Positions 9,168-15,013 of a DNA stretch of 64,000 nucleotides are shown one piece after another; position 1 is the first letter of the stretch; every line of letters begins with the position of its first letter. The notes under the pieces were generated by a model. The model was not told the DNA's origin and ran no database searches. It was given only the letters and a program-made list of their open reading frames with translations. Both the position numbers and the translations under genes were made by a program. The stretch covers positions 1,856,001-1,920,000 of the forward strand of contig CAXXHB010000003.1 in the NCBI GenBank assembly GCA_963664815.2, given 5' to 3'. Source of the stretch: Spirochaetota bacterium (GTDB lineage: Bacteria > Spirochaetota > UBA4802 > UBA5550).

Positions 9168-9542
9168 ATGACAGCAATTCGATTTCCTAATTCAGTTGGT
9201 ATTGGAAGCGGCGGCGGCAGAACAGACAGCCACCATGAAACCAGAGGTGTCAGGGGTTTGATTAAAAGCCATAAAAGCAGCGATGTAATTGAGATTTCAA
9301 CTGAAGCAAAAAACAGATTTGCGAAAGACAACCTTATAAGGCTTGAAAAGGTCAAGCTGATGAAGGAGGCAAAGGATTACAGGATTGAGTTAAATGAAGA
9401 GCTGAAATTCAAAGAGGCTGATCTCCGGAATGTTTACAGAATGATAAAAATATCGGATGCGAAAAGTAAACTTAAGGAAGGTTTCTTTGATCTTTATGAA
9501 GATTATATTATTAAAAAGATTATCAATAAACCGGAAATATGA
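9168..9542 (+). CDS. Small protein resembling the FlgM anti-sigma-28 family
   Basis: GGAGG RBS; low-complexity N-terminus, then DVIEISTEAK, IRLEKVKLMK and KISDAKSKLKEGFFD, matching the FlgM pattern D.v.IS..A...R.eKV..lK..I..G.Y. Confidence 0.5.
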   Translation: MTAIRFPNSVGIGSGGGRTDSHHETRGVRGLIKSHKSSDVIEISTEAKNRFAKDNLIRLEKVKLMKEAKDYRIELNEELKFKEADLRNVYRMIKISDAKSKLKEGFFDLYEDYIIKKIINKPEI

Positions 9543-9551
9543 TGTAATATT

Positions 9552-9585
9552 TCAGAATCCGGAGCCTCAGGACTCCGGATTCTGA
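9552..9585. repeat. Perfect 13-bp inverted repeat (hairpin)
   Basis: TCAGAATCCGGAG (9552-9564) / CTCCGGATTCTGA (9573-9585). Confidence 0.8.
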
Positions 9586-9595
9586 CAAGGATTGT

Positions 9596-9985
9596 ATGAT
9601 TAATAAAGATATTGTAAATTTTGCTGTTAACATTTTAGGGTGCCAGTGTGACAACAGCGTATTCAGCTCTATCGAAAAATATGACAACATTCTGCTAAAC
9701 TGCGGTATAAGGCTTAAGAATAAAATTATCATTGGTAAAAGGCTGATGATCTATATTGCCGATGAAACTTCACTCAGTCCGAAAGATGTCTGGAAAGTTA
9801 TTATTGATGGTAAAACGGAAAGAGACAGCATGATGTATAACAGGTTACGGATTGTCATTGTTGCAGACAGGATAAATGAAATCGCGCCTGTTTATTATAG
9901 TGAATTTGACGGTATTAAAGAAAAAGATGAAAGAATTCATATACATGTAATAAGGGCGGAGGACTCAATCAGGGATAATGTATGA
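9596..9985 (+). CDS. Hypothetical protein
   Basis: 129-aa ORF with an AAGGA RBS; N-terminal LGCQC motif; function unknown. Confidence 0.7.
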   Translation: MINKDIVNFAVNILGCQCDNSVFSSIEKYDNILLNCGIRLKNKIIIGKRLMIYIADETSLSPKDVWKVIIDGKTERDSMMYNRLRIVIVADRINEIAPVYYSEFDGIKEKDERIHIHVIRAEDSIRDNV

Positions 9986-10095: not shown

Positions 10096-11310
10096 TCATT
10101 GTTTTGCAGATTCCTCTTCTATAACCTCTCCGAGACGCATAATTCCCTCTTCAATATCTGACGGTGATGAGAAGCTGAAATTAAGCCTCATTTCATTTTC
10201 TCCACCCTGACCGGGATAAAATGAATTTCCTGAAACATATGCGACATTGCGTTTAAGCGCTTTTTCATGCATTGTCATGGTGTTGATATTTTCCGGGAAC
10301 TTAAGCCACAGGAATAAACCTCCCCCCGGTGTTTCATATAAAGCCGACGGAATAATTCTGTCTATTGCATCTGTCATAAGATCACGTTTATCTCTGTATA
10401 TCTTTTTAACCCTCTCAATCTGCTCATATATTGATCCGGTGTCTATAAACTCATGAATAACAAATTGCGACATTGTATGGCTGCATGTGTCTTCCCCCTG
10501 TTTGGCTATTGTGCATCGTCGTACGGTTTCCTCCTGAGCGTTCAGCCATCCTGTCCGCATGCCTGGGGAAACTGTCTTGGAGAATGAACCGAGGTAGACA
10601 ATCCGTTTTTCAGTATCTATATTCTTAAACGGTACAACATGTTTGTTATCATATCGTATCATTCCGTAGGGATCATCTTCGACAATCATTAAATCATGTT
10701 TTGATGCAACAGAATAAATAGCTTTCCTGCGGGAGTTATCCACAGTAATTCCTGTGGGATTATGAATTGAAGGAATGGTGTAAATAAATCTCGGTTTTTT
10801 CCCGGCAATGATTAACTCGCATATTTTTTTATCAAGCTCCACAGGGTCCATTCCGCTATTGCCTATGGCGAGCGGATGTATCTCTGCCATAAATGAACGG
10901 AAACAGCTTATCGCACCGACGAAGGTAGGGTTTTCCGTGATAACGGCATCTCCCGGATTGAGAAGTACTTTGCATAAAAGGTAGAGTGCCTGCTGAGAGC
11001 CGCTTGTTACAAGTATATTGTCGGGCGATGCTGAAAGGCCGTAAATATGGTACATCAGATCACATATTGATTCGCGCAGCGGGGTGTATCCTTCAGTGGT
11101 TCCATATTGAAACACCGATGATCCATGCTCTGCTATTGTTCTGTCTATTATATCTTTCAGTTCTTCAAGAGGGAAGGCTTCCGGTCCGGGTAACCCTCCC
11201 GCGAAACTTATCATCTGCGGGTTGCCGGTGAGTTTCATCATATCACGGATTGCGGATGATTTCATATTGAGGGATGAATGGGAATAAACTGGGGTATAAT
11301 GGTCATTCAT
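10096..11310 (-). CDS. PLP-dependent aminotransferase class I/II (LysN/ARO8/AvtA-like, no HTH)
   Basis: SSAIRDMMK, ISFAGGLP, QYGTTEG, TSGSQQAL, HNPTG, EDDPY, GSFSKTVSPGMRTGW (PLP lysine), MRLNFS; GGAGG RBS. Confidence 0.93.
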   Translation of the reverse strand: MNDHYTPVYSHSSLNMKSSAIRDMMKLTGNPQMISFAGGLPGPEAFPLEELKDIIDRTIAEHGSSVFQYGTTEGYTPLRESICDLMYHIYGLSASPDNILVTSGSQQALYLLCKVLLNPGDAVITENPTFVGAISCFRSFMAEIHPLAIGNSGMDPVELDKKICELIIAGKKPRFIYTIPSIHNPTGITVDNSRRKAIYSVASKHDLMIVEDDPYGMIRYDNKHVVPFKNIDTEKRIVYLGSFSKTVSPGMRTGWLNAQEETVRRCTIAKQGEDTCSHTMSQFVIHEFIDTGSIYEQIERVKKIYRDKRDLMTDAIDRIIPSALYETPGGGLFLWLKFPENINTMTMHEKALKRNVAYVSGNSFYPGQGGENEMRLNFSFSSPSDIEEGIMRLGEVIEEESAKQ

Positions 11311-11419
11311 AAAAGGAACCTCCGCGCCGATAACAGGGGGTGTTTTTAATTATAATATTAAATGCTGCTGTTTTAACTGATGCGGCTTTTGAAGATTTGA
11401 TTGCTGCTGACTTTTTCAT
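11303..11419 (-). CDS. Unannotated 38-aa uORF (MKKSAAIKSSKAASVKTAAFNIIIKNTPCYRRGGSFYE) overlapping the aminotransferase start
   Basis: AAGGAG RBS (11426-11431) 6 nt before the ATG; its stop overlaps the next start as ATGAATGA. Confidence 0.5.
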   Translation of the reverse strand: MKKSAAIKSSKAASVKTAAFNIIIKNTPCYRRGGSFYE

Positions 11420-11467
11420 GACAGACTCCTTTATTGTTTTTTATAATGATTCGCAAAAATTTTAACC

Positions 11468-11495
11468 AAAAAAAAGCCCGCTTAATAAGCGGGCT
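11468..11495 (-). terminator. Intrinsic terminator within the aminotransferase 5' leader (attenuator)
   Basis: Minus strand reads AGCCCGCTT-ATT-AAGCGGGCT running into a U8 tract; it lies upstream of, and co-directional with, the aminotransferase. Confidence 0.85.
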
Positions 11496-11520
11496 CTGTT
11501 TCATAAATATTTATATATAT

Positions 11521-11613
11521 TCAGGAATTTACCCGCAGAGGAATACCGCTGTCGATAGCCGCAGCTGCCGCAGTAATAATAATGCTAATGAATATACAAT
11601 CTGATTTTATCAT
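11521..11613 (-). CDS. Putative attenuation leader peptide MIKSDCIFISIIITAAAAAIDSGIPLRVNS
   Basis: 30 codons with a run of 3 Ile and 5 consecutive Ala codons (GCG GCA GCT GCG GCT), ending 25 nt before the terminator hairpin. Confidence 0.75.
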   Translation of the reverse strand: MIKSDCIFISIIITAAAAAIDSGIPLRVNS

Positions 11614-11620
11614 ATTAATA

Positions 11621-11650
11621 ACATTAATAAATATGAGGCATAACTGTCAA
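11621..11650 (-). promoter_or_regulatory. Putative sigma-70 promoter of the leader/aminotransferase transcript
   Basis: TTGACA (11650-11645)-N18-TAATGT (11626-11621), 7 nt before the leader ATG. Confidence 0.55.
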
Positions 11651-11879
11651 TATATAAAGTTCATATAAATAAAAAATTGATTTGAACAGGCAAATTTTAA
11701 TTCTGCTTAGACCTGATATTTTATGACAAAGTTCCTGATTTCTATATTTTTTTCCTGTTTCTATGTATTTTATTTGAAAATTTTTAACTCAAGGGTTAAA
11801 TTAACTAATAAAGTGCTTGATTTTAAAAAACCGGATTAACAAAAATGTTACAACAAAAACCTGGTATTTAATAATTTTT

Positions 11880-11900
11880 ACCACAAATTCACCACAAATT
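11880..11900. repeat. 10-bp direct repeat with 11-bp period, possible regulator site
   Basis: ACCACAAATT-C-ACCACAAATT, 26 nt upstream of the TlpA-like start. Confidence 0.45.
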
Positions 11901-11926
11901 TTTAAAATTCTGGCGGTTTAAATCAT

Positions 11927-12436
11927 ATGAAGCTACTTCGTTTTTTATTTATAATCATAACAGGTTTCTTATTTCTGACGATCAATACCCCGGTGAACGG
12001 AGAGGTTTTAAAAGGAACAGTGGCTCCGGTTTTTAATCTCAGAACGCCGAGAGGGGAGCTTGTGAAACCATTCCAGAGCCAGAAGCCTATGATAATAAGT
12101 TTCTTTTTTACAGATTGTCCGAATTGTAAAATTGAGCTGAAGGCCCTTGAACAGTTTTATCTGAATAATGGTGACAAGGTTGCGGTTTTCATTGTAGGTA
12201 CTTCATTTAAAAAGGATGTTGATGTAGCTGAAGATGTAGATGCCTTTATCAGGGATCTCGGAATAAACATTACTCCTCTTGTAGATAAATATAAAGATGT
12301 GATCAGAACTTATGGTGTTTCAAAATATCCGTCGCTTTTTTTTCTTAACAGTAAGGGGGAGGTTGTTTTTAAATCTGAAGTTTACAGCGAAAAAACAATC
12401 TCTGAGCTTGAAAAACAGTTAAAAACAGTAAAATAA
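11927..12436 (+). CDS. TlpA/ResA-like exported thiol-disulfide oxidoreductase
   Basis: Signal/anchor helix, APVFNL, FFFTDCPNCKIE (CxxC), YGVSKYPSLFFLNSKGEV (cis-Pro loop). Confidence 0.88.
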   Translation: MKLLRFLFIIITGFLFLTINTPVNGEVLKGTVAPVFNLRTPRGELVKPFQSQKPMIISFFFTDCPNCKIELKALEQFYLNNGDKVAVFIVGTSFKKDVDVAEDVDAFIRDLGINITPLVDKYKDVIRTYGVSKYPSLFFLNSKGEVVFKSEVYSEKTISELEKQLKTVK

Positions 12437-12450
12437 CACGAGGACTTTCC

Positions 12451-13728
12451 ATGATTAAGAAGATATCCATAGTATTGTTGTCAGTAATGACAGTGTTCTG
12501 CAGTGTTTCGTATGCTGCAAAAGTGCAAAAAAAGAATATTTTTATTAAACCCTTCACTGTGGACGGTAAGGGCGTATCCATGGATTTCACAGATTATATG
12601 TCTGAAGTAATTGTTGAGTATGAAGAGTATAATCTTATTTCAGAAGAGGATGTAAGCGCCCAGAAATCGGCTATTGAAGGTAAAATGGCATCCTCCTCTT
12701 CAGATGTTGATAATGACGCATCAATGAAAGCATTAATGGAGGCTGTCGATTCTGATAGTATAATCTTCGGTACCATAGACAAAAATGATGACGGGTCTCT
12801 GACTGTAATGGGGCGTATTCTTGACCGTAAAACCGGAATCGGCAAAGGGAAAACAATAAAGGTAAAAAGGGCCAGGTATCTGGATATAGCAGCGAGGGCG
12901 CTGGCACACTATCTTATAACAAAAAAAGATTCATATCTTGATGAACTTAAGGAAGATATGGAAGATAAAGAAAAGGGCGTCGCCAAGGCTGAAAAGAAAC
13001 GTAGAAACACGCTGCTCGGAATCGAATCAGATTTTGAAGGTCAGAATGAAACGGTTGCAAAATCACCTTTTATCAGGGTCGGGTACAGCGGTATCGGCGG
13101 CAGTTCATATATTAATGATAAGAAGGTAAATGAATACTATCCGAAAGCCCAGGTGCTTTCTGCTGATCTCTTTGTATACAGGTCAAGGGATATTGTAGGT
13201 GATGGCGTTGATATATATTCAAAATTCATGTACAAGAAGTTTTCATCTGATGATGCGTCAGTCGAAAAGTTTAAGACTGATATGACTGCGCTTAACCTGA
13301 CGACCAATAATGAGAAACTGGCCGGCCAATATCTGATACCTTCCGGCAATACGCTGAAAGAACTTGAAATGATACAGAAGAGCATTGATATCGGCTTCAG
13401 ATTTGTAGGGACATCATATTTTTTAAACGAAGCATGGTCTTTATATATGATGTTCGGTGGAAGGTATATGCAGGTTACTGAAACATACAAAACAACGAAT
13501 TCCATGTTGTTACCGGAAGATTTTAAGAAAAATTTTACCGGCATAGGGGGAGTAGCCGGTTTAGGGTTAGAGGTGACTATAAACAGGTATATGGGGTTAT
13601 TTGCCGAGGTTAATGCCGGTTATGTTCCTATCGGAGACAATAAATTAAATTATGACGGATATCAGCTGATTGTAGGGGCAACACTCAGAAACAGTCACAC
13701 TGAATATCCATTCCTTGGTATTCTGTAA
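12451..13728 (+). CDS. Exported protein: CsgG/TolB-N-like domain, charged linker, C-terminal outer-membrane beta-barrel (paralog A)
   Basis: Signal peptide (SYA-A); DSIIFGTIDK...VMGRILDRKTG; amphipathic C-terminal strands GGVAGLGLEV, GLFAEVNAGY, YQLIVGATLR. Confidence 0.6.
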   Translation: MIKKISIVLLSVMTVFCSVSYAAKVQKKNIFIKPFTVDGKGVSMDFTDYMSEVIVEYEEYNLISEEDVSAQKSAIEGKMASSSSDVDNDASMKALMEAVDSDSIIFGTIDKNDDGSLTVMGRILDRKTGIGKGKTIKVKRARYLDIAARALAHYLITKKDSYLDELKEDMEDKEKGVAKAEKKRRNTLLGIESDFEGQNETVAKSPFIRVGYSGIGGSSYINDKKVNEYYPKAQVLSADLFVYRSRDIVGDGVDIYSKFMYKKFSSDDASVEKFKTDMTALNLTTNNEKLAGQYLIPSGNTLKELEMIQKSIDIGFRFVGTSYFLNEAWSLYMMFGGRYMQVTETYKTTNSMLLPEDFKKNFTGIGGVAGLGLEVTINRYMGLFAEVNAGYVPIGDNKLNYDGYQLIVGATLRNSHTEYPFLGIL

Positions 13729-13762
13729 AAATCGAAATGATTATTAAACGGGGACTTGCATT

Positions 13763-15013
13763 ATGAAAAAAATATTTTATATACTGACAGCGACAATTGT
13801 GATAATGGCAAATATACCTGCATTAACTGCTGCAGAGAAGAGTATAATCTATGTAAAGAATTTTACTATAGATACCGCCAGCGGATTAAAGGAAAATGAT
13901 CCTGTAAAAAATGAAGTAAAGAACATTATACAGGATGAGTTTGAAAAGGATGGAAGATTTTCTGTAACGGCGGATCAGGATATATCTGCCATGCTTCAGC
14001 AGGAGGCTAAAAGTCAGAGTTTTGGAAAGTGCTCTTCTGAAAGCTGTATTCAGGAACTTATGGAAAAGATTAAAGCGCAGGTTATTGTTTTCGGAAGGAT
14101 AAGAAAGGGTGATGACGGCTATACTTATATTACTGCCCGTTATATGGACAGCACCTCAGGCATACCGAAAGTTACAAAAATCAGGACAATTAAATATAAA
14201 CACAGTGATGATGTTGAAAAGGGCTCAAAAGCGCTGGCGCGCTATCTCATCACAGGCAAGGATGACAAGGTTATAGCTTTTATGGATGAAGTATATAACA
14301 GGGAAGAGGATGAATCCAAATCAAAAAACATCGAGGAAGAGAAACAGCTCGCGAAAAAGAAGGAAGCAGAGTATAATGCGAAGGTGGAAAAGGCCGCAAA
14401 AGAGAGAAAAAATGCCTTAATGTCCCGCTCTCCGCGCTTAAGGGCCGGTTACGGTTTTTTTATGTCAACAGGCAACAAAGATGTGGATGATGTTTTCAAG
14501 GAACAGTCCGGCTATTTTCTGGATATCATGTTTGCAAGAGGCCCTATAAACGAACGTTTTAACCGCGACTGTTATTTCAGGTTTATATACAAAAAATACG
14601 GCATGAACGATGATTCCATTAAATCAAAACCTGTATTGGGAAAAGATGCAATAAATGACAGTACCGGAAAATTTTATGGAATGGACTTCGGCTTCAGGCT
14701 GAAAATAAACAGGTATTTTATGCTCACCGCCTTTGATCCATACGCCCTTGCAGGTATCAGAACCGGGTGGTATACTGAAAAGGCAAAAGACAAATATGAT
14801 AATTCAGATTTAAAGGTTACACTTGGAGGATACGGCGGTTACGTTGGCGGTGGAATGGAGTTTGCTTTCTTTGAAAACCTCGGGTTCTTCGGAGAGTATA
14901 ACCGGGGAATATTCAAGATCGGAAAAGATAAAACAAATATTGAAGGTAACCAGTTCTACGGCGGTGTAACACTGAGAACAGAGATAGAAGAAAGAAGTTC
15001 TTCAAGGTACTAA
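13763..15013 (+). CDS. Exported protein: CsgG/TolB-N-like domain, coiled coil, C-terminal outer-membrane beta-barrel (paralog B)
   Basis: Collinear with the upstream gene: IVFGRIRK vs IIFGTIDK, ALARYLITGKD vs ALAHYLITKKD, SPRLRAGY vs SPFIRVGY, DFGFR vs DIGFR, GGVTLR vs VGATLR. Carries a CSSESC pair. Confidence 0.6.
   Translation: MKKIFYILTATIVIMANIPALTAAEKSIIYVKNFTIDTASGLKENDPVKNEVKNIIQDEFEKDGRFSVTADQDISAMLQQEAKSQSFGKCSSESCIQELMEKIKAQVIVFGRIRKGDDGYTYITARYMDSTSGIPKVTKIRTIKYKHSDDVEKGSKALARYLITGKDDKVIAFMDEVYNREEDESKSKNIEEEKQLAKKKEAEYNAKVEKAAKERKNALMSRSPRLRAGYGFFMSTGNKDVDDVFKEQSGYFLDIMFARGPINERFNRDCYFRFIYKKYGMNDDSIKSKPVLGKDAINDSTGKFYGMDFGFRLKINRYFMLTAFDPYALAGIRTGWYTEKAKDKYDNSDLKVTLGGYGGYVGGGMEFAFFENLGFFGEYNRGIFKIGKDKTNIEGNQFYGGVTLRTEIEERSSSRY

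Follow-up and report, generated by a model that had tools for sequence, protein, structure and literature searches.

A leader with alanine codons probably attenuates transcription of an aminotransferase gene in an uncultured spirochaete

The window analysed here is a stretch of 64,000 nucleotides from the genome of a Spirochaetota bacterium (contig CAXXHB010000003.1; genome G000 below), and the subject of this study is the leader region of a gene for a pyridoxal 5'-phosphate (PLP)-dependent aminotransferase. The leader lies in a divergent intergenic region of 616 bp (11311-11926), and its minus strand carries a promoter, an open reading frame of 30 codons (ORF1) with eight Ile, an Ile-Ile-Ile stretch and five consecutive Ala, the hexamer GCGGGU, and an intrinsic terminator, all of them where a preliminary description made from the letters alone had located them. 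A second reading frame (ORF2), Ala-rich and led by a Shine-Dalgarno (SD) sequence, lies between the terminator and the aminotransferase gene and had been overlooked in that description. The leader combines, by computational analysis, the attributes of an attenuator: a promoter-proximal short ORF, a codon cluster for a single amino acid, an intrinsic terminator, and a competing antiterminator strand that can be masked. We consider it probable that the leader is a ribosome-mediated leader-peptide transcription attenuator, tuned to charged tRNA-Ala, which controls the monocistronic aminotransferase gene, and the attenuator interpretation as such is well supported by conservation and geometry. The features are listed in Table 1.

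Table 1. Features of the leader and of the gene it precedes, in 5' to 3' order of the minus strand (window coordinates).
Feature	Position	Strand	Remarks
-35 box TTGACA	11645..11650	-	TTGAC invariant at 7/7 loci; starts 35-37 nt 5' of the ORF1 ATG
-10-like hexamer TAATGT	11621..11626	-	18-nt spacer after the -35 box; matches TATAAT at 3/6 positions
ORF1, putative leader peptide	11521..11613	-	30 codons, no SD; 27-30 codons at 7/7 loci
Ile-Ile-Ile codons	11575..11583	-	just 5' of the Ala run; middle column Ile at 7/7 loci, next column at 6/7
Five Ala codons, GCG GCA GCT GCG GCT, proposed regulatory codons	11557..11571	-	Ala cluster in the same place at 7/7 loci
GCGGGT, 5' strand of the predicted antiterminator helix P1	11531..11536	-	nucleotides kept at 7/7 loci, in all three ORF1 frames
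Inner antiterminator helix, UUC 11527-11525 / GAA 11502-11500, around an AU-rich hairpin 11523-11504	11500..11527	-	predicted in the window
Intrinsic terminator	11468..11497	-	stem 11497-11473, 11 pairs, loop ATT; eight T at 11475-11468, the first three within the stem
SD sequence AAGGAG of ORF2	11426..11431	-	GGA(G/A) core 5-9 nt 5' of the ORF2 ATG at 7/7 loci (pattern)
ORF2, putative, Ala-rich	11303..11419	-	38 codons; 36-38 codons at 7/7 loci, 4-9 Ala each
PLP-dependent aminotransferase, KAT-II/LysN/ARO8 subgroup	10096..11310	-	404 aa; own GGAGG at 11323-11319

Taken alone, the sequence of the window does not exceed chance, with two terminator-like sites in the region where shuffled sequences gave 1.7, and a z-score of -2.36 for the leader fold. 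The module was judged to be beyond chance because it is conserved at seven loci, and not from the single sequence. These seven distinct loci are the window, five further genomes (G003, G007, G045, G046 and G077) and one metagenome contig (L078), as counted after removal of two duplicates (L068, the same as G045, and L069, the same as G077). The carriers amount to six of the 122 genomes of the order, from three genera of one Spirochaetota family, plus the metagenome contig. A protein search of 41 related genomes returned orthologues (66-69% identity) in G003 and G007 only, both of the window's genus, and a metagenome scan gave three additional close loci. A covariance model built from the leader (R1) was run across the 122 genomes and scored 99-146 bits in G000, G003, G007, G045, G046 and G077, the next best match reaching at most 33 bits; five weak R1 matches were inspected and are plain terminators at gene ends. 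An independent protein search placed orthologues (E ≤ 1e-100, 59-69% identity) in these six of the 122 genomes and in no other, and in all six the leader adjoins the orthologue on the same strand. R1 matched none of 85 loci of paralogues with 34-43% identity, and no such leader was present in the eight paralogue upstream regions that were inspected.

Simpler searches gave a partial picture. A blastn search with the leader across 64 genomes of the family recovered G003 and G007 only and missed G045, G046 and G077, which were later found by R1. A loose DNA pattern running from GCGGGY to the terminator was unspecific, with at least 119 matches, mostly in GC-rich genomes, and a tighter pattern gave six matches, three of them true (G003, G007, G045); the other three, at gene ends in a Planctomycetota metagenome-assembled genome, Kangiella and Caballeronia, were rejected as chance. 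A scan of the genome contigs with a protein pattern returned distant aminotransferases only. The module of leader, ORF2 and aminotransferase gene is patchy in its spread, being present in three of eight genomes of the window's genus, two of three in a second genus and one of six in a third, and the sequence 5' of the -35 box differs among the loci. The patchy spread and the differing upstream sequence together suggest that the module has been gained or lost as a unit.

The putative promoter of ORF1 is recognisable at every locus. An xAxxxT hexamer can be read by eye at all seven, 17-18 nt past the -35 box and 6-7 nt ahead of the ATG, and the 9-of-12 promoter rule is passed by the ORF1 promoter at four of them, the window's promoter being among those that fail. 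In the window, the ATG of ORF1 is located at 11613, 7 nt past TAATGT, and it is not preceded by an SD sequence. Usual promoter geometry puts the transcription start at or beside the A of this AUG, and ORF1 is for this reason predicted to be leaderless. A leaderless start is probably what the seven loci have in common, and their comparison supports the earlier proposal of ORF1 as a short translated leader that possibly lacks an untranslated region.

The peptide encoded by ORF1 in the window, MIKSDCIFISIIITAAAAAIDSGIPLRVNS, has 30 residues, eight of them Ile. Across the loci, the peptides carry basic residues at the start and a hydrophobic stretch behind them, and the upstream part varies and draws on many residue types. 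No coding feature of ORF1 is better conserved than the Ala cluster, which stands at a constant position, with three to six Ala across six aligned codons per locus and two columns that are Ala at all seven loci, while the wobble positions vary. This wobble variation in the Ala columns points to selection on the meaning of the codons. Over codons 1-25 of ORF1, the differences by codon position are 0.45 for the third, 0.31 for the first and 0.34 for the second (six loci, ungapped). The chance of at least three consecutive Ala in 29 random residues, at the 6.2% Ala of the genome, is P = 0.006. Alanine is, judged from these codons, the likely signal that is sensed.

The Ala codons are also biased in their choice of synonym. 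GCA or GCG accounts for 29 of the 36 ORF1 Ala codons (81%) as compared to 53% genome-wide, and GCG alone for 16 of the 36 as compared to 15% in the genome. Genome G000 has three tRNA-Ala genes, two with the anticodon UGC and one with GGC, and by standard wobble decoding tRNA-Ala(UGC) reads both GCA and GCG. The 81% share of these two codons makes UGC the probable main isoacceptor. The bias towards one isoacceptor is suggestive at best, because the loci are kin and the codon usage was taken from G000 only.

The preliminary description had regarded the codon run as sensing Ala and Ile alike, and of this the Ala part stands, with a cluster that is conserved under wobble variation, whereas Ile is less conserved than Ala. 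The Ile codons may be a secondary signal. A reading in which Ile, or the branched-chain amino acids, are the main signal, the enzyme is a branched-chain or alanine-branched-chain transaminase and the Ala codons are kept mainly for a GC-rich pause hairpin would agree with the Ile or Val codons that flank the Ala run at every locus, with the eight Ile of the window, with one invariant Ile column, and with a small hairpin that RNAalifold places in the stretch of Ala codons. We nevertheless hold it to be distinctly improbable: Ile is the commonest residue in the genome (9.3%) and beyond the window ORF1 holds just two to six of them, the Ala columns are more conserved than the Ile columns and show wobble changes, and the protein scores far under the cut-offs for valine-pyruvate transaminases.

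Downstream of the Ala cluster, near the end of ORF1, the motif GCGGGY is fixed while the coding around it is not. Its frame is G|CGG|GTA in the window, G003 and G007, where the peptides end in ...IP(L/A)R(V/A)(N/D)S (...IPLRVNS, for example); it is TGC|GGG|TAR in G045, L078 and G046, where they end in ...IPCG, and GCG|GGT in G077, where the end is ...RGAGF. Since the motif stays constant while frame and peptide tail change, it is the RNA motif and not the C-terminal peptide that is under selection. The spacings are narrow as well. At the seven loci, GCGGGY is separated by 31-37 nt from AGCCCGC in the 5' arm of the terminator, the ORF1 stop begins 5-13 nt past the first G of GCGGGY (-1 to +7 nt from the end of the motif), and the Ala run ends with a codon 19-30 nt 5' of the motif. 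A ribosome shields about a dozen nucleotides 3' of its A site, and from this footprint and the measured spacings a terminating ribosome would hide GCGGGY and one stalled at the Ala codons would leave it free. The comparison of the seven loci is in support of the earlier assignment of GCGGGU as the antiterminator strand that competes for the 5' arm of the terminator and would be covered when a ribosome occupies the stop codon.

The behaviour of this peptide tail also bears on the idea that ORF1 and its terminator constitute an independent small gene, either for a hydrophobic peptide of 27-30 aa or for a small RNA of about 150 nt, and that ORF2 and the aminotransferase gene are promoted separately. 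The basic N-terminus and hydrophobic continuation of the ORF1 peptide would suit such a gene, as would a terminator as strong as this one (11 pairs, U8), and attenuator-derived transcripts may act in trans in other bacteria, according to the part of the source that was available (PMC6614838). On the other hand, conservation at the C-terminus concerns the nucleotides and not the peptide, and the spacer between terminator and ORF2, 48-145 nt long and unalignable among the loci, holds no promoter-like site at any of the seven (by the rule that four of the seven ORF1 promoters pass). Among the 122 genomes, moreover, the leader never occurs without the aminotransferase orthologue, even though the sequence 5' of the -35 box differs. 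We assign an independent gene a small probability, and a role in trans for the short transcript would supplement attenuation and not replace it.

The terminator core AGCCCGC/GCGGGCU is invariant at all seven loci, with a loop that differs in every one of them and U-tracts of four to eight. The antiterminator was assessed by folding each RNA without the 3' arm of the terminator and taking the minimum free energy (MFE) structure per sequence. The pairing GCGGGY:GCCCGC is present in the MFE structure of six of the seven loci; in G077 the register is shifted (CCGG.GGGC with GCCC.CCGG) and the same terminator arm is engaged. An inner helix UUC(Y)/GAA(A), comparable to that of the window, was read from the dot-brackets at five of the seven loci, with an equivalent UUUU/AAAA in G077 and none in G046, and this helix and the AU-rich hairpins are predicted to reduce the size of the loop at most loci. 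Forcing the antiterminator form costs 4-12 kcal/mol in stability relative to the terminator form, a gap that would be expected of a switch that is decided kinetically. In the alignment of the loci (A5), all 56 terminator cells are paired and so are 41 of the 42 antiterminator cells; when the partner is slid by 1-3 columns, the pairing falls to 34-50% for the antiterminator and 12-62% for the terminator. In the RNAalifold prediction nothing upstream pairs with the GCGGGY strand.

Apart from the two alternative hairpins, there is little RNA structure in the leader. No Rfam family matched at its gathering score. The best match, Trp_leader (RF00513) with 34.4 bits against 41, covers 11468-11543 and spans the 3' end of ORF1 plus the terminator; Thr_leader (25.5 against 55), Leu_leader (24.4 against 50) and Phe_leader (24.8 against 55) were also below gathering, and all sub-threshold Rfam matches overlap the terminator. 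Two further blocks of nucleotides are conserved in the leader, TATTCC and GCGGGTAGATT. These blocks could serve as a binding site for a protein or a small ligand that sets the choice between terminator and antiterminator, with ORF1 as an incidental feature, an explanation to which we give very little weight. Against it speak the missing Rfam family and the scarcity of structure, and a reading frame that is open at seven of seven loci with fixed length and start geometry and a stop codon tied to the antiterminator strand.

From these elements we infer an attenuator that would operate as follows. Transcription would start at or beside the A of the ORF1 AUG and yield a leaderless mRNA, and a ribosome would trail the polymerase through ORF1. 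With ample charged tRNA-Ala, the ribosome would reach the ORF1 stop codon and cover GCGGGY; AGCCCGC would then pair with GCGGGCU, and the hairpin and U-tract would terminate the transcript approximately 150 nt from its start. If charged tRNA-Ala runs short, the ribosome would stall in the Ala cluster, 19-30 nt 5' of GCGGGY, and the free motif would pair with GCCCGC as soon as this arm has been transcribed, assisted by the inner helices. The terminator would be blocked in this way, and the polymerase would continue into ORF2 and the aminotransferase gene. The Ile codons ahead of the Ala run may add a sensitivity to Ile.

The ORF2 peptide of the window is MKKSAAIKSSKAASVKTAAFNIIIKNTPCYRRGGSFYE, and its ATG stands 6 nt past AAGGAG. 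The stop codon TGA overlaps the ATG of the aminotransferase gene in the window (TATGAATGA), and the latter ATG is found 5 nt ahead of the ORF2 stop at six loci and 14 nt ahead in G045. The ORF2 peptides start with MK and, as read from the translations, have their Ala mostly near codons 9-19, with GCA or GCG as 35 of the 43 Ala codons. In predicted folds of the ORF2 region, the SD sequence and AUG of the aminotransferase gene are mostly paired, with mean unpaired probabilities of 0.05-0.41 and 0.0-0.6, respectively. The predicted folds at six of the seven loci have this start region paired with a stretch that contains GUCA and lies at the start of ORF2 or shortly past it. The best reading of ORF2 is as a coupling upstream ORF (uORF) whose translation would open the start site of the aminotransferase gene: ribosomes on ORF2 would unfold the predicted structure and terminate over the ATG. 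A role as precursor of a ribosomally synthesised and post-translationally modified peptide was considered and rejected for both frames; ORF1 is parted from the enzyme gene by the terminator and its C-terminus shifts frame, and at its conserved end ORF2 overlaps the SD sequence and ATG of the enzyme gene.

The aminotransferase belongs to Pfam family PF00155 (Aminotran_1_2; E 2.7e-33, 116 bits against a cut-off of 19.7). Its solved relatives match over the full length with E-values from 4e-103 to 8e-75 (PDB 1x0m and 3aov, both PH0207, and 1wst, 2egy and 2zc0), for instance 1x0m with E 3.9e-103 over residues 9-400 and 2egy with E 8.5e-79 over residues 13-397. Among these nearest structures are a KAT-II homologue of Pyrococcus, a multiple-substrate aminotransferase, LysN of Thermus and an alanine:glyoxylate aminotransferase of Thermococcus (2zc0). 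Every curated NCBIfam cut-off was missed; the top matches, all below their cut-offs, are MocR-type aminotransferase domains and MppQ, the best being a PdxR-type MocR aminotransferase domain with 250 bits against 320. The identity to the ordinary paralogue of related genomes is approximately 35-39%. An AvtA-type transaminase acting on Ala and branched-chain amino acids, as had been suggested in the preliminary description, is not borne out, with valine-pyruvate transaminase models at 95.3 bits against 402 (NF006967) and 91.5 against 467 (NF006964) and the nearest solved relatives being of the KAT-II/LysN type. We infer by analogy that the enzyme forms alanine by transferring an amino group to pyruvate, since its leader is Ala-coded and other leaders of the genome match the pathways of the genes they precede.

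These other leaders came to light when the 5' regions of G000 were scanned for strict terminators, of which 35 were found among 329 regions; all three described here lie outside the window. A Leu leader (G000:C3:3739613-3739790; L292:1814-1990, minus strand) contains an SD-led short open reading frame (sORF), MKSLNHKSLLLGLLLLSLLKAGVIS, with ten Leu and a 12-pair terminator 27 nt past the sORF and 178 nt ahead of leuA, which encodes a 2-isopropylmalate synthase of 526 aa (NF002086, 728 bits); the stop codon of the sORF overlaps the predicted antiterminator strand. An aromatic leader (G000:C3:41850-42063; L293:150-364, plus strand) contains the sORF MKSLAKKSFNVIYAVKELKSAGFGYFYFYFYVSDILN with the run FGYFYFYFY, and its terminator stands 36 nt ahead of the genes for a 3-deoxy-D-arabino-heptulosonate 7-phosphate (DAHP) synthase (NF006421, 422 bits) and AroB. 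A third terminator (G000:C3:2876758-2876782; L294:1559-1583, minus strand) is situated 22 nt ahead of trpE (TIGR00564, 427 bits against a cut-off of 518); the sORF next to it, MKKQIILICIWRIIYI, has a single Trp codon and is doubtful as a Trp attenuator. Leader-peptide attenuation of the classical kind, with codon runs that fit the regulated pathway, appears to be in use in this organism, and the Ala leader is rendered more credible by the presence, in the same genome, of Leu and Phe/Tyr leaders that match the pathways they regulate.

Several observations weigh against an alanine-tuned attenuator on an alanine-forming enzyme. The -10 box is weak, and a consensus promoter scan of the region in the window does not list the ORF1 promoter. 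Four sequencing runs are listed as containing this stretch of DNA, and none of them is recorded as RNA. Neither helix shows a compensatory change in alignment A5 at the seven loci; covariation is uninformative here, because both helices are invariant. In the comparison of orthologous upstream regions, which the preliminary description had put forward as a check, the Ala run with synonymous variation was found and covarying stems were not. The invariance of one arm together with two partners is consistent with a switch, as an argument rather than a test. No hairpin of the 1:2 type, which would serve as anti-antiterminator or pause hairpin, is evident, the RNAalifold prediction consisting of just the small hairpin inside the Ala codons. 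G003 (MAAVA) and G046 (AAATVA) have only a short Ala run, the enrichment of GCG and GCA could stem from needs of the RNA instead of tRNA choice, and Ala is an abundant residue, so that few regulatory codons would give low sensitivity. The Ala-rich ORF2 is also without a clear role in the model, since a stall there should lower the coupled translation and not raise it.

Further points of this kind concern the enzyme. Its sole family link to alanine is the one alanine:glyoxylate aminotransferase (2zc0) among the solved relatives, and the gene is accessory, being present in three of the eight genomes of the window's genus, G000 included. Alanine dehydrogenase (TIGR00518) is encoded in three of the six carrier genomes (G000, G003 and G077) and in 20 of 58 others, and as three of the six carriers have it the aminotransferase is not the sole possible source of alanine. 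There is no complementary pattern between alanine dehydrogenase and the aminotransferase, and the phyletic pattern is neutral in this respect.

With no 1:2 hairpin in evidence, read-through would result from a ribosome stalled at any codon of ORF1 that is sufficiently far upstream, and the same attenuator might respond to a general slowdown of translation, caused by shortage of any amino acid or by ribosome-targeting compounds, in the manner of the whiB7 and erm-type leaders. The lack of an anti-antiterminator and the variable upstream part of ORF1 with its many residue types would fit a sensor of this kind, and the whiB7 uORF answers to shortage of many amino acids in keeping with its composition, as stated in the accessible portion of its description (PMC10274678). 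We consider this unlikely, given that the Ala cluster surpasses all other coding features of ORF1 in conservation, is fixed in its place and is biased towards one isoacceptor, that the regulated gene encodes an amino-acid aminotransferase, and that the leaders with Leu and Phe/Tyr runs in the same genome match their operons. An attenuator tuned to charged tRNA-Ala is the reading that we prefer. It can be extended to a two-tier alanine sensor, in which the leaderless Ala leader would gate transcription via tRNA-Ala(UGC) and the overlapping Ala-rich uORF would gate translation; the module would then mark an unrecognised alanine-forming subfamily of KAT-II/LysN type that is inherited or transferred as a module, within a wider undescribed set of Spirochaetota attenuators (Leu, Phe/Tyr and Ala). 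This extension is doubtful, if somewhat more plausible than the alternatives discussed above.

The surroundings of the module in the window consist of a divergent gene cluster on the plus strand (11927-15013), encoding a thioredoxin/AhpC-TSA-like protein of 169 aa, a protein of 425 aa that matches no Pfam or NCBIfam model and a protein of 416 aa with a sub-threshold match to an outer-membrane beta-barrel (28.1 against 28.7 bits), and of two plus-strand ORFs of 124 and 129 aa (9168-9985), convergent with the aminotransferase gene and again matching no Pfam or NCBIfam model.

If the attenuator is real, its implications would be threefold. It would be the first alanine-codon attenuator acting directly in cis, the only Ala-tuned leader that our literature searches returned acting indirectly via WhiB7; it would give an uncharacterised aminotransferase subfamily a predicted function, the supply of alanine; and, with the Leu and Phe/Tyr leaders of the same genome, it would place classical leader-peptide attenuation in an uncultured spirochaete lineage. 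In the openly readable literature we found no cis-acting Ala-codon attenuator on an aminotransferase gene and no leader-peptide attenuator described in spirochaetes, and paywalled papers or supplements may hold earlier comparative predictions. One Treponema paper uses the expression "alanine leader peptide" for a secretion motif of glycine and alanine, which has no bearing here. In a survey from 2010, leader-peptide attenuators were, as far as its available text goes, demonstrated only in Proteobacteria and Actinobacteria, and the survey added Firmicutes (PMC2965389).

The classical attenuator model requires a run of regulatory codons in a leader, an intrinsic terminator, an alternative helix, and a ribosome positioned by the stop codon so that it blocks this helix. 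The present leader shares with the attenuators of Proteobacteria (trp, his, leu, thr, ilv, phe) a short ORF near the promoter that holds a codon run for one amino acid, a terminator ahead of the structural gene, an alternative helix that takes the 5' arm of the terminator, and a leader stop codon that would let a terminating ribosome block this helix. It differs from them in that the regulatory codons are for Ala, that ORF1 lacks an SD sequence and is predicted to be leaderless, that no 1:2 hairpin was found in it, that the target is a single aminotransferase gene and not a pathway operon, that an extra uORF follows the terminator, and that the host is a spirochaete. With all scores below gathering, it is not a member of the Rfam leader families either.

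For ORF2, the comparison is with leader genes that have been proposed to raise downstream translation by reinitiation, with a peak in distances that includes Spirochaetales, according to the available part of that study (PMC4833913). Those genes are 1-65 bp apart from their targets, whereas ORF2 ends over the start of the aminotransferase gene and overlaps it, and its constant richness in Ala is left unexplained by the idea of reinitiation as far as the same text presents it (PMC4833913). For ORF1, the leaderless polycysteine sORFs of mycobacteria, described in the accessible part of a preprint as cysteine-responsive attenuators in cis (bioRxiv 10.1101/834739), have in common with the present leader the predicted leaderless start, the run of one amino acid and the control in cis, and they differ in amino acid and phylum.

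The preliminary description knew of no characterised Ala-codon attenuator, and in this it has been overtaken by the mycobacterial whiB7 uORF, an Ala-enriched frame which its authors call an "Ala leader" and which senses alanine shortage; it controls WhiB7, which activates aspC and so indirectly brings about more alanine aminotransferase, as described in the portion of the paper that was available (PMC10274678). In both systems a uORF would decide between an antiterminator and a rho-independent terminator, with an alanine aminotransferase as the output. In contrast to whiB7, where a transcription factor stands between the two, the leader described here is placed directly in cis before the aminotransferase gene (PMC10274678). 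The whiB7 uORF is also longer and more diverse, responds to many amino acids and belongs to another phylum, and the likeness is drawn from its partly available description and not from sequence (PMC10274678). On the accessible text of both sources, the closest precedents are accordingly the whiB7 uORF for the signal and the polycysteine sORFs for the mode of starting translation.

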